Source of the DNA: Patescibacteria group bacterium
GTDB taxonomy: Bacteria > Patescibacteriota > Doudnabacteria > UBA920
Assembly (NCBI GenBank): GCA_038065175.1
Contig: JBBTRN010000018.1
Location: 1,445 to 47,978 of the forward strand
Reading direction: 5' to 3'
DNA: 46,534 nucleotides
A program made the position numbers and the translations under genes. The stretch's first letter is position 1; each line of letters opens with the position of its first letter. Below are positions 19,498 to 27,815 of this stretch, piece after piece. Below the pieces are notes generated by a model. That model ran no database searches. It was given only the letters and a program-made list of their open reading frames with translations, and had not been told where the DNA came from.

Positions 19498-19540
19498 AAA
19501 TAACAAAACCCCCTCACAGAGAGGGGGTTTTGTTATTTTT
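19498..19540. terminator. bidirectional terminator overlapping the tyrS 3' end
   Basis: AAATAACAAAACCCCCTC-acaga-GAGGGGGTTTTGTTATTT. Confidence 0.85.
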
Positions 19541-20707
19541 TTTCTCGAACCAGTAAAATCTTCTTTTACCCACTTGGATCAATCGCTTCTTACTGATATC
19601 TTCAATTATCTTATCCTCTTTCACAACTTCATTATCAATTTTAACACCGCCTTGCTCAACTAACCTTTTAGCTTCTGATTTACTAACGCCAAATAAGAAT
19701 GAAGTTGTTCCGGAAACCGTAGGTATAATATTGGGCGGCAAAAGCCTATATTTAATACCACTCGGCAACTCTTTTTTACTAAACAAACTCATAAAAGCAT
19801 TTTTTGCATCAACTGATTTCTTTTCACCGTGATACAGGGCAGTAACGCTCTGGGAAAGAATGAGTTTTTGATCGCGAGGATTATTTAATTCTTTCATTAC
19901 CCGCTTAATTTCTTCTCCCGGGGTTCGGGTAGCCAGCAAAAAATATTTCTCTATTAAATTGTCCGGAATAGACATAATCTTGCCGAACATGTTATTGGGT
20001 TCGTCGGTAATATTCACCACATTACCCCAGGAAGAGGACATTTTGCGTCCGTCCGTGCCTTCCATTAAAGGCACCATCAAAATATCCTGCGGCTTTTGTT
20101 TGTAAAACGGCTGGATGGTTCTGCCTGCTAATAAATTAAACCTTTGGTCAGTACCGCCTAATTCCACATCGGCCTTAACCGCGACCGAATCGTAGCCTTG
20201 CATTAAAGGGTACATCAGTTCCCGAAAAGAGACCCTTTTGCCGGTCTTCATCCGCAAGGCAATATTTTCGCGGGCTGCCATTTCATGCAGACCGAATAAG
20301 TTTGCCATTTCGGCAATTTCCAAAAATCCGAGCTTTTTCAGCCATTCCGAATTATAGTGGGTTTCGGTTTTTTTCTTATCTAATATTTTAAAGGCTTGTT
20401 CAAAATAAGTTTTCAAGTTGGCCTTAACCTGTGCCGGGCTTAACATTGGCCTTTCGGAATCTTTATCTGAAGTGTCACCAATTAGCCCTGTGAAATCGCC
20501 CACAATAAAAACCACCTTGTGCCCAAGTTCCTGGAAGGCACGAAGTTTCCATAAAACCACTGCCCGGCCAATGTGAATGTTCGGGGAAGTGGGGTCAATG
20601 CCCAATTTGACGCGAAGTTTCTTTTTGCCTTTTAAGGCCGCCTCTAAATGGGCTTTGTCTATTACTTCTTCCACGCCGCGGGTTAAAATACCTTCTATAT
20701 TGTTCAT
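19514..20707 (-). CDS. tyrS: tyrosine--tRNA ligase
   Basis: GIDPTSPNIHIG, YPLMQGYD, GGTDQRFN, KMSSS and a C-terminal S4 domain. Confidence 0.95.
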   Translation of the reverse strand: MNNIEGILTRGVEEVIDKAHLEAALKGKKKLRVKLGIDPTSPNIHIGRAVVLWKLRAFQELGHKVVFIVGDFTGLIGDTSDKDSERPMLSPAQVKANLKTYFEQAFKILDKKKTETHYNSEWLKKLGFLEIAEMANLFGLHEMAARENIALRMKTGKRVSFRELMYPLMQGYDSVAVKADVELGGTDQRFNLLAGRTIQPFYKQKPQDILMVPLMEGTDGRKMSSSWGNVVNITDEPNNMFGKIMSIPDNLIEKYFLLATRTPGEEIKRVMKELNNPRDQKLILSQSVTALYHGEKKSVDAKNAFMSLFSKKELPSGIKYRLLPPNIIPTVSGTTSFLFGVSKSEAKRLVEQGGVKIDNEVVKEDKIIEDISKKRLIQVGKRRFYWFEKKNNKTPSL

Positions 20708-20744
20708 ATGATTAATTATATCACTGATTATTTAGGGATCAAAG

Positions 20745-21701
20745 TTAATTATTTGGGTGTTTTAAAATCCAATCCAAGGCCTTGGATATTTGATCAAATG
20801 AGCTAAAAATTAAGTATGAATGATGCAAGCTGTGTGGGCTCCTGTCTAGCTTAGGAAACAAACTTACATCAAAGTTAATTTTTTTTACGTTTTGGCTGCC
20901 AGCATTATTTAATTCCCCAAAAGAGGATATCAACCCTGCGCCAATGACTAAATTTTTACCACCCTCCTTAATAAATCCAAATTCCATACTATTCCACCAC
21001 AACCGTTCAGCCATAAATTGTTGACCCTCTTCCTTGCATTTCATAAAAACTTGACCAAACTTTTGAGCCAGTTCTTTTATTTCAGGATTTACAAGCATAG
21101 GTAAGTGGCCAAAGATATCATGAAAAATATCCGGTAGCGGAATAAAATCCAACTCTTTCATAGTTCGGATATAATTGGTTCGCATAATCCGTCTTTGCGA
21201 CAAAAAATGAAACCACGGCGCGTCTTCTGCATACTGTATGTTAGTAACTTCAGTTTTCCATTTCGCAACAGTAAACAGGCGTTCGTCCAACTCTTCTAAA
21301 TTAGGCAGTTTATTTGGGTTAATATTTAACAATTTTAGCCCTTCCCAAAACCACGGATGAACCTTACCCTTTAAACTCTTAAACTGACGCTCAAATAATT
21401 TTTGCCAAATAACATGAGCTTTAGGGTCAGTTATGGACAAAACTTTTAAATCACTAAATTTTGTACTGTAAAATTTACTGTCCAAAAGCTTAGCCAGCTG
21501 CCAGTCTTTTTCAGTTACTATATCTCCGGCATCGTGGGTGGTAAGCAGGACATTAATCTTGTTGCTTTTTAATGACCAGTCAGGATCATGACCCAAAGCC
21601 AAAATACTCGGCTTACAAGCAGCCACAAAATCCAATGCCTCCTGGTTATTGGAAAAAACGAACGTCTTAACAAGTTTATTATTTTGATTCTGCCATTGCA
21701 T
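20745..21701 (-). CDS. pterin-4a-carbinolamine dehydratase fused to phenylalanine 4-hydroxylase
   Basis: N-terminal PCD-like region (KTFVF, GHDPD, LTTHDAG); C-terminal PDIFHDIFGHLPML, MEFG and GAGLISSFGE with the His/His/Glu iron ligands. Confidence 0.85.
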   Translation of the reverse strand: MQWQNQNNKLVKTFVFSNNQEALDFVAACKPSILALGHDPDWSLKSNKINVLLTTHDAGDIVTEKDWQLAKLLDSKFYSTKFSDLKVLSITDPKAHVIWQKLFERQFKSLKGKVHPWFWEGLKLLNINPNKLPNLEELDERLFTVAKWKTEVTNIQYAEDAPWFHFLSQRRIMRTNYIRTMKELDFIPLPDIFHDIFGHLPMLVNPEIKELAQKFGQVFMKCKEEGQQFMAERLWWNSMEFGFIKEGGKNLVIGAGLISSFGELNNAGSQNVKKINFDVSLFPKLDRSPHSLHHSYLIFSSFDQISKALDWILKHPNN

Positions 21702-21729
21702 ATTTATTTATTCTTTAATAATTAAAAAT

Positions 21730-21761
21730 AAAAAAACCACCTGGCAGAGCCAAGCGGTTTT
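21730..21761 (-). terminator. attenuator terminator upstream of the hydroxylase
   Basis: minus strand AAAACCGCTTGGC-tct-GCCAGGTGGTTTTTTT. Confidence 0.75.
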
Positions 21762-21782
21762 GAAAATAAAAGCAAATTCAAA

Positions 21783-21848
21783 TTACCGCGAACTCTGCAA
21801 AGAGGGACGGTAAGTATACATATTAAATTTAACGGTAACTTTTTTCAT
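21783..21848 (-). CDS. attenuator leader peptide MKKVTVKFNMYTYRPSLQSSR
   Basis: 21 aa with F-x-x-Y-x-Y, lying between the promoter and alternative hairpins. Confidence 0.7.
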   Translation of the reverse strand: MKKVTVKFNMYTYRPSLQSSR

Positions 21849-21858
21849 ATCTGTTCGT

Positions 21859-21887
21859 ATAATATAGTAATAGACCTAATTTGTCAA
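21859..21887 (-). promoter_or_regulatory. promoter of the leader/hydroxylase transcript
   Basis: minus strand TTGACA-17 nt-TATTAT. Confidence 0.7.
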
Positions 21888-21923
21888 TTAGAACACAAAA
21901 AAGTTATAATCTTAGGACATGAG

Positions 21924-22198
21924 TCCCGTTAGAGAAACCCTATATATTATACTTATATTTTACAAAGCTTCAAAGACGGGAAGCAATATACAGGCTGTTG
22001 CAAAAATTTACGGAAGCGTTTCAAACAGCATAACAATAACCTAGTGCCATCAACCAAAGGTCGAGCTCCATTTGTTTTAATATATTATGAAGCGTGTTTA
22101 AATAAAGATGACGCTTTTGCCAGAGAACGCTATCTTAAAAGCGGGATGGGCAAACGCTATTTAAAAAATCGTTTGAAACGCTTCCTTTCTCTAACGGG
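21924..22198. mobile_element. CCC...GGG element carrying a GIY-YIG gene, inserted at the PBP start codon
   Basis: ATGAG-TCCCGTTAGAGA ... TCTCTAACGGG-ATGAA. Confidence 0.8.
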
Positions 22199-22202
22199 AT
22201 GA
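21942..22202 (+). CDS. GIY-YIG nuclease family protein (ATA in place of a start; possible pseudogene; not in the ORF track)
   Basis: YYTYILQSFKDGKQYTGCCKNLRKRFKQHN...LIYYEAC...AFARERYLKSG. Confidence 0.8.
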   Translation: MYYTYILQSFKDGKQYTGCCKNLRKRFKQHNNNLVPSTKGRAPFVLIYYEACLNKDDAFARERYLKSGMGKRYLKNRLKRFLSLTG

Positions 22203-27663: not shown

Positions 27664-27815
27664 TTAACTCCTCCTTCTTTTGCGTATTCATACCCCGCAG
27701 GGTGTTTTGGTTTTAACCAAGAAGAATACCAGAAATACAAAAATTGACAATTGTAGTCATCGTATGATATAGTATATTTAGCCTTATTTAAGGCTAAATA
27801 TTTATTTTATTTATA

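Follow-up and report, generated by a model that had tools for sequence, protein, structure and literature searches.

Here we present a locus on the minus strand of a 46,534-nucleotide stretch of DNA (contig JBBTRN010000018.1; hereafter the window) from a Patescibacteria group bacterium, in which a short open reading frame (ORF) with two tyrosine codons and a set of alternative RNA hairpins stand in front of the gene for a predicted phenylalanine hydroxylase (PAH). The host is an ultrasmall groundwater bacterium with an assembly of 1.03 Mb and a genome that is 97.9% complete. Read along the minus strand, the order is promoter, 21-codon ORF, a hairpin between segments 1 and 2 of the leader (1:2), antiterminator, terminator with U-tract, a fused pterin-4a-carbinolamine dehydratase-phenylalanine hydroxylase gene (PCD-PAH) and tyrS. 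The coordinates of these features are collected in Table 1, together with the leader peptides found at other loci of the phylum.

Table 1. Features of the tyrosine-codon leader and its neighbourhood in the window, and leader peptides of other PAH loci
Feature	Position	Strand	Details
Predicted sigma-70-type promoter	21859..21887	-	-35 TTGACA 21887-21882, 17-nt spacer, -10 TATTAT 21864-21859
Leader ORF, 21 codons + stop	21783..21848	-	MKKVTVKFNMYTYRPSLQSSR; ATG 21848, TAA 21785-21783
Putative regulatory codons TAT-ACT-TAC (Tyr-Thr-Tyr)	21810..21818	-	TAT 21818-21816, TAC 21812-21810
Segment 1, TTACCG	21808..21813	-	overlaps second Tyr codon; pairs with CGGTAA (21788-21783) of segment 2
Segment 2	21783..21798	-	GCAGAGTTCGCGGTAA; final codons and stop of leader ORF; partner is segment 1 or 3
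Segment 3	21744..21758	-	ACCGCTTGGCTCTGC; antiterminator 3' strand, also terminator 5' arm and loop
Antiterminator	21798-21785 / 21758-21744	-	GCAGAGttcGCGGT / ACCGCttggCTCTGC; top fold once the Tyr-codon region is masked
Intrinsic terminator hairpin	21733..21761	-	13 pairs (6 G-C), 3-nt loop, -16.8 kcal/mol; followed by TTTATTTTT
U-tract	21723..21732	-	TTTATTTTTA; directly after terminator hairpin
PCD-PAH fusion, putative regulated gene	20745..21701	-	318 residues; Pfam PF01329 5e-15, PF00351 5e-22
tyrS promoter-like site	20715..20742	-	TTGATC-16-TATAAT with TG; in the 37-nt gap after the PAH stop
tyrS (tyrosyl-tRNA synthetase)	19514..20707	-	PF00579 1.1e-69 and S4 domain
Two-way terminator hairpin, tyrS end	19498..19538	.	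terminator search
L049 leader peptide			MMFNTYYASSGR
L050 leader peptide			MKFSWLSSVAYYYPPLGGG
L052 leader peptide			MKLSWLSSATYYYPPLGGG
L051 leader peptide			MFKRFQTPVSYYYRSCGGLSAY
L057 leader peptide			MNTRLSQTASYYYRSCGGLTAY
L054 leader peptide			MNPTRIPSAASYYASRLYREL
L056 leader peptide			MNIRQSISSTYYLNLSV
L061 leader peptide			MHRQFSNSYWYYYGSCGGLYSYCQ

In the PCD-PAH product, residues 2-74 make up the pterin-4a-carbinolamine dehydratase and residues 127-309 the biopterin-dependent hydroxylase domain of phenylalanine hydroxylases, with the Chromobacterium PAH as the closest solved structure (1ltu, E 3.4e-33). The FHDxFGH stretch and E240 are invariant among the aligned relatives, and we take H194, H199 and E240 to be the iron ligands of a 2-His-1-carboxylate site. 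By its catalytic domain the protein is assigned to the bacterial PAH family, with a predicted specificity for Phe. The original prediction, made from the letters of the DNA alone, had named the target a phenylalanine hydroxylase, and the PF00351 domain bears this out, but the gene encodes a PCD-PAH fusion and not PAH alone. Such an N-terminal fusion is rare: among the homologs listed, only P0001-P0003 (45-52% identical) share the domain order, the order in P0006 is reversed (PAH then PCD), and at locus L059 a PCD gene precedes a PAH gene with an ATGA overlap. Two metagenome-contig searches returned no contigs for P0001-P0004, the closest PCD-PAH proteins, and a genome-contig search for close PCD-PAH genes returned just stand-alone PCD genes from Bacteroidota metagenome-assembled genomes, with no PAH within 3 kb.

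The tyrS gene begins 37 nt after the PCD-PAH stop codon, and the same kind of -10 hexamer as that in the gap precedes tyrS in relatives. The terminator search gave none between the two genes, so tyrS lies within reach of read-through from the leader promoter.

The leader promoter matches the sigma-70 consensus at 11 of 12 positions, and the leader ATG lies 10 nt past the -10 hexamer, leaving a predicted 5' untranslated region (UTR) of 2-4 nt and no Shine-Dalgarno sequence. Codons 11 and 13 of the leader ORF encode Tyr, upstream of the gene for a Phe-to-Tyr enzyme. The second of them, TAC, is separated from segment 2 by 11 nt, a distance that just clears a stalled ribosome, and from the terminator to the PCD-PAH ATG (21701) there are 32 nt. 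The promoter, leader peptide, 1:2 hairpin, antiterminator and terminator with U-tract of the original prediction were all recovered at their minus-strand places. The word TTACCGT occurs twice in the leader ORF on the minus strand, at 21836-21842 (codons 4-6) and at 21807-21813 (the Tyr-Arg codons); either copy could pair with the CGGTAA of segment 2, and the upstream copy would lie exposed behind a stalled ribosome. Between positions 21600 and 22000, contigs from four DNA sequencing runs are either identical or unrelated to the window, the sole difference being a 2-nt deletion at 21897.

For the free 171-nt leader the folding energy is -35.1 kcal/mol (z = -3.05), a value matched by 1 of 200 dinucleotide shuffles, and the minimum-free-energy structure contains both the TTACCG/CGGTAA 1:2 hairpin and the terminator. 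To represent a ribosome on the leader, we used masked folding, in which ribosome-covered bases are forced single-stranded and 10 nt are taken as covered 3' of the A-site codon. Within this series the free RNA, at -31.3 kcal/mol, again adopts the 1:2 hairpin and the terminator. When TAT or TAC occupies the A site, the partner of segment 2 (GCAGAGTTCGCGGT, 21798-21785) becomes ACCGCTTGGCTCT, which comprises the terminator 5' arm and loop; before the terminator 3' arm exists, this antiterminator is worth -16.1 kcal/mol and pairs 10 of the 12 bases of the 5' arm. The antiterminator persists as the best fold even at full length, at -22.6 kcal/mol, when the A site is taken by the last Tyr codon (mask 49). 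With the ribosome on the stop codon, inside segment 2, only the terminator forms (-17.1 kcal/mol). The pairings are mutually exclusive, and the four-segment layout of the trp/phe/his type, with the ribosome geometry that it requires, holds in silico.

PAH is scarce in this lineage. A PAH-domain match was found in none of 60 relatives, in none of 145 other genomes of the class and in one of 400 genomes sampled across the phylum (G201, 31% identity). A search around G201 gave 12 places in 11 of the 205 genomes of its order, and five more came from 401 genomes of its class. Fourteen of these 17 PAH places beyond the window are evaluable, the remaining three (L058, L062, L064) being situated at the end of a contig. 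At 8 of the 14 the leader design recurs: an upstream ORF (uORF) of 12-24 codons with YY or YYY, an antiterminator and a terminator, the uORF stop lying 22-33 nt before the terminator and the terminator ending 18-28 nt before the PAH ATG. The conservation of Tyr codons upstream of homologs, which the original prediction had called for, is found together with an antiterminator and a terminator.

The nine leaders (the eight and that of the window) are unalignable except within two subgroups, L050/L052 and L051/L057/L061, and what is common to all of them is the design. Runs of Tyr are the only feature that all nine leader peptides have in common, Tyr accounting for 29 of their 177 residues, and 8 of 12 loci have a short upstream ORF with YY, whereas no other residue is doubled in this way at more than five. 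These residues are written as TAT and TAC alike, one GC-rich leader having TAC TAC TAC; therefore it is the amino acid that is conserved and not an RNA word. Codon 11, which starts at nt 30 from the ATG, is Tyr in seven of the nine leaders (the window, L050, L051, L052, L056, L057 and L061), which favours ATG 21848 over an internal ATG at codon 10 as the start of the window's ORF. The first ten codons of these seven leaders are unrelated, yet the spacer is fixed. In masked folds with the ribosome on the stop codon, the terminator is all that forms in 9/9 leaders, and a stall at the Tyr codons pairs at least half of the terminator 5' arm in 8/9, with L049 weak.

These shared features bear on the possibility that the switch is real but answers to some agent other than a translating ribosome (an RNA-binding protein, a small ligand, uncharged tRNA), in which case the short ORF would be incidental. 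Protein- and tRNA-mediated attenuation are well known from TRAP, PyrR and the T-box, and a uORF that lacks a Shine-Dalgarno sequence, has its ATG 10 nt past the -10 hexamer and is translated only by prediction would fit such a device. Yet the nine leaders share a Tyr-codon frame that accepts either synonym and ends at a stop 22-33 nt before the terminator, ten codons precede the Tyr run in seven of them, and no RNA sequence or fold is common to all. There is also no match to an Rfam family, the T-box included, and no candidate regulator gene within the locus. We consider a switch of this kind unlikely.

Several further observations touch the PAH loci themselves. At four loci, phhA and then a separate PCD gene follow the leader; therefore the fusion in the window represents the same two-enzyme module. 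Genome G540 has two PAH copies: L050, 51% identical to the G201 query PAH, has a YYY leader, and the second copy, L060 (40% identical), has only a promoter, placed after the terminator of the upstream gene. The PAH-like genes L062 and L065 contain 4-5 in-frame TGA codons and gain in score when read with translation table 25, which would place the module also in lineages that read TGA as glycine; at L065 one frame covers only the C-terminal half of the domain.

Upstream regions of tyrS served as a control, comprising the 250 nt before the gene in 29 relatives. A uORF with Y.?Y was present in 4/29 and a terminator-like hairpin in 2/29; both occurred together in 1/29, where the hairpin is contained in the ORF and precedes the Tyr pair. 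By eye (uncounted), the region before tyrS is a short promoter region that mostly ends at a divergent gene, which in the same-genus locus L016 is PBP1A-like. The idea that the Tyr leader is an ancestral regulator of tyrS was rejected on this evidence, no leader being present upstream of tyrS in the 29 relatives.

A crude scan of the 1.03-Mb assembly, limited to perfect stems and ATG starts, counted 468 terminator-like hairpins. For 39 of these, a same-strand ORF of at least 100 aa follows within 80 nt; none but the window site was so arranged with a promoter and a short ORF. Such numbers might be taken to favour a constitutive, partly leaky terminator, placed behind a divergent promoter as an insulator, or an independent gene for a small RNA or peptide, in either case with no amino acid sensing: terminator-like hairpins are common in this genome, and TATTAT-like Tyr-Tyr words arise easily in AT-rich DNA, as the 4/29 tyrS regions with a Y.?Y uORF illustrate. 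However, the antiterminator overlaps exactly that part of the ORF which a terminating ribosome would cover, and the layout recurs before PAH in eight other genomes, including the GC-rich leader with TAC TAC TAC. Furthermore, the neighbouring genes of the leader are divergent, so no upstream gene on the same strand needs a terminator there. We judge an explanation of this kind to be quite unlikely.

The presence of tyrS downstream raises one more alternative, a degenerate T-box riboswitch with a Tyr specifier (UAC) controlling PAH and tyrS. T-boxes commonly control tyrS in Firmicutes, and a UAC codon is present here. Against this, Rfam at gathering score matched only a tRNA, elsewhere, over the whole window, with RF00230 not matched, and at E <= 10 over 21600-22100 it gave weak, terminator-driven matches only and no T-box. 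The leader is only about 150 nt long and has no Stem I, and its antiterminator has UUGG in the 3' strand of the internal loop, while in a T-box antiterminator it is the 5' strand that forms the conserved bulge. With no leader in the 29 tyrS upstream regions of relatives either, a T-box origin is exceedingly improbable.

A number of points weigh against a ribosome-mediated attenuator and temper our reading of the locus. Four of the 14 evaluable PAH places are clearly without a leader (L053, L055, L059, L060), and two more are ambiguous and were excluded from the leader count: L063 has one Tyr codon and a weak hairpin, and L065, from a code-25 genome, has a split or ambiguous gene start. The window leader has two Tyr codons only, split by Thr, where the other leaders have adjacent runs. 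The leader-bearing PAHs are only about 31% identical to the window protein, and the nearest PCD-PAHs (45-52%) are metagenomic. Translation of the uORF is assumed, with a 5' UTR of 2-4 nt and no Shine-Dalgarno sequence, and tyrS retains its own promoter. The genome search turned up no GTP cyclohydrolase I, FolE2 or PTPS; the pterin cofactor would need to be acquired.

The same caution applies to the statistics. The helix covariation that the original prediction had asked for is present to the extent that the alignment of L051, L057 and L061 (A3) has two antiterminator pairs and one terminator pair changed on both sides, column 99 changing with both of its alternative partners (U-A-U versus C-G-C), so that both alternative helices show compensatory changes; but these are three sequences, and 71 of 500 shuffles do equally well. 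In a first duplex test, masked through the last Tyr codon plus 10 nt and confined to the terminator 5' arm, the result was marginal: the window reached p = 0.049 against shuffles, L049, L054, L056 and L061 were not significant, and Fisher's combination with one value per related group gave 0.083. A further test, in which the mask began at the first Tyr codon and both arm and loop were taken in, gave p = 0.011 for the window, p <= 0.034 in 8/9 leaders and 1.8e-5 with one value per group, under a definition picked after the first result was known. The L049 antiterminator was no better than shuffles in either test.

Taken from the window alone, these modest figures (z = -3.05, p = 0.049 or 0.011) would leave room for chance hairpins beside a short ORF in AT-rich intergenic DNA. 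Nevertheless, leaders of unrelated sequence show this design in front of genes of the same family, and the window site is the only one of its kind in the genome scan. Coincidence therefore seems very unlikely to us, and we hold with good confidence that the locus encodes a ribosome-mediated leader-peptide transcription attenuator that would sense charged tRNA-Tyr.

The working of this predicted attenuator can be outlined as follows, where the transcription start, the translation of the uORF, the stalling and the regulation in vivo are what we infer from the arrangement of the sequence. Transcription would begin a few bases before the leader ATG, and a ribosome following the polymerase closely would translate the 21-codon ORF. 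With ample Tyr-tRNA, this ribosome would reach the stop codon and cover segment 2, leaving segments 3 and 4 free to pair as the 13-bp terminator, which together with the U-tract would release the transcript 32 nt short of the gene. Under a shortage of Tyr-tRNA, it would stall with TAT or TAC in its A site, cover segment 1 and free segment 2, which would form the antiterminator with segment 3 before the terminator 3' arm is made; the polymerase would then read into PCD-PAH and probably on into tyrS. In the absence of translation, hairpins 1:2 and 3:4 would form and transcription would stop. The expected outcome is that Phe is converted to Tyr only when Tyr is short, the fused PCD domain recycling the pterin.

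The metabolic setting is consistent with such a purpose. Prephenate dehydrogenase has no match in the genome above the family cut-off, and chorismate synthase and prephenate dehydratase have none; the Tyr breakdown genes 4HPPD and homogentisate dioxygenase (hmgA) likewise gave no genome match. Since genes for Tyr and Phe synthesis and for Tyr breakdown were not found, a Tyr-supplying role for PAH fits and a catabolic role is disfavoured; the anabolic role proposed for PhhA in the original prediction is accordingly plausible. The regulatory logic would itself point to the purpose of the enzyme in reduced genomes, namely to make Tyr from scavenged Phe and not to degrade Phe.

Starts without a Shine-Dalgarno sequence and close to a promoter look normal for this clade. 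Across the 30 tyrS loci L015-L044, a TGnTATAAT-type -10 ends 3-9 nt before the ATG in 12/30, and a Shine-Dalgarno-like word precedes tyrS in 1/30 genomes, so that tyrS itself looks leaderless in much of the clade. Among the nine Tyr leaders, the best predicted promoter-like site ends 4-10 nt before the leader ATG in six. The proposed attenuator suggests coupling of ribosome and polymerase, in these bacteria, on ORFs that lack a Shine-Dalgarno sequence or a real 5' UTR.

In the window genome, three elements stand between PBP1A and tyrS: a GIY-YIG gene, the leader and PCD-PAH. The G+C content of this stretch is 0.36-0.38, compared with 0.41-0.44 for tyrS and about 0.5 for PBP1A. Because of this position and the lower G+C, the GIY-YIG, leader and PCD-PAH module looks like an insertion between PBP1A and tyrS. 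The GIY-YIG domain ORF inside the apparently inserted stretch (window 21933-22202, plus strand; PF01541, 8.4e-14) has no ATG, GTG or TTG ahead of residue 38 of its frame, which at the usual MYY start position reads ...RNPIYYTYILQS, and it ends in a TGA that shares bases with the start codon of PBP1A (ATGA). Initiation at a rare start codon is one possible reading, decay of the gene another. Elsewhere in the window, at 27744-27812 on the plus strand, TTGACA and a TATGAT -10-like hexamer are followed at once by an AT-rich hairpin of 12 pairs (27774-27801) and a T-run, with an ORF about 70 nt further on.

Particular to the window are the fused PCD-PAH, the split Tyr pair (Y-T-Y), the nearly leaderless uORF and a tyrS within reach of read-through. 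A broader and quite tentative proposal, which may well not hold, is that this is a leaderless attenuator: the sensing ribosome would load on a 5'-terminal AUG without a Shine-Dalgarno sequence, the fixed 10-codon spacer would time the ribosome against the polymerase, and the device would give ultrasmall bacteria a self-contained Tyr-supply module (leader, PCD-PAH and, here, tyrS via read-through) that could move between lineages as a cassette. Few cis-regulatory sensors have been proposed for this phylum of ultrasmall and mostly uncultured bacteria, and the attenuator would be one of them. No description of a Tyr-codon leader for phhA was found in the full-text literature, subscription journals not being covered, and no paper there joined phenylalanine hydroxylase with the Candidate Phyla Radiation; among the matches listed, none described an attenuation or leader-peptide device in Patescibacteria.

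The arrangement can be set against several known systems. In the classical model of Yanofsky, attenuation rests on a leader peptide and on 1:2, 2:3 and 3:4 hairpins. The window has the same four segments with exclusive 1:2, 2:3 and 3:4 hairpins and a terminator just before the structural gene, and its ORF is promoter-proximal with codons for the pathway product, as in the enterobacterial trpL-trpEDCBA, pheL-pheA, hisL, thrL, leuL and ilv systems (compare PMC11802643 and PMC1183508). Unlike those attenuators, it has Tyr codons, a target that is a Phe-to-Tyr hydroxylase and not a de novo pathway, a uORF without a Shine-Dalgarno sequence and with almost no 5' UTR, and a host genome of ~1 Mb in which the shikimate-pathway genes searched for were not found.

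Other attenuators share single traits with the window. The review PMC11802643, in the sections considered here, covers trpL, pheL, pheM and the Corynebacterium aroR leader (Phe-Tyr-Phe). In the pheM leader of E. coli pheST, cognate-codon attenuation has an aminoacyl-tRNA synthetase downstream, as the window has PAH and then tyrS; unlike pheST, the window tyrS keeps its own promoter, and no leader stands before tyrS in the 29 relatives, therefore any control of tyrS would be a by-product of the site of PAH insertion. The aroR leader of Corynebacterium glutamicum aroF is, like that of the window, an aromatic-codon leader peptide with ribosome stalling before a gene of aromatic amino acid metabolism. 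It is described there as responding to Phe limitation, Tyr availability having no effect, whereas window-type leaders have only Tyr codons in common.

The same PAH and PCD module is found in the phhABC genes of Pseudomonas under PhhR and sigma-54. The sections of PMC1173090 considered here describe predicted attenuators before tyrA operons, place phhA under PhhR and sigma-54 and mention no leader peptide. There PhhR is a protein activator that serves Phe and Tyr breakdown, whereas the window would use an RNA device that reads Tyr supply in a genome where no 4HPPD or hmgA was found. The T-box (RF00230) upstream of tyrS is a further likeness, in that tRNA-Tyr charging is sensed through a choice between terminator and antiterminator; unlike it, the window has no model match, Stem I or T-box sequence, and its proposed reader is the ribosome. 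Leader peptides were at the time of PMC2965389 known from Proteobacteria and Actinobacteria, to which that paper, in the sections considered here, added Firmicutes. The device presented here most likely joins the classical leader-peptide attenuators as a new member whose signal is Tyr, and as such it would add tyrosine to the amino acids that these attenuators read and phenylalanine hydroxylase to their targets.

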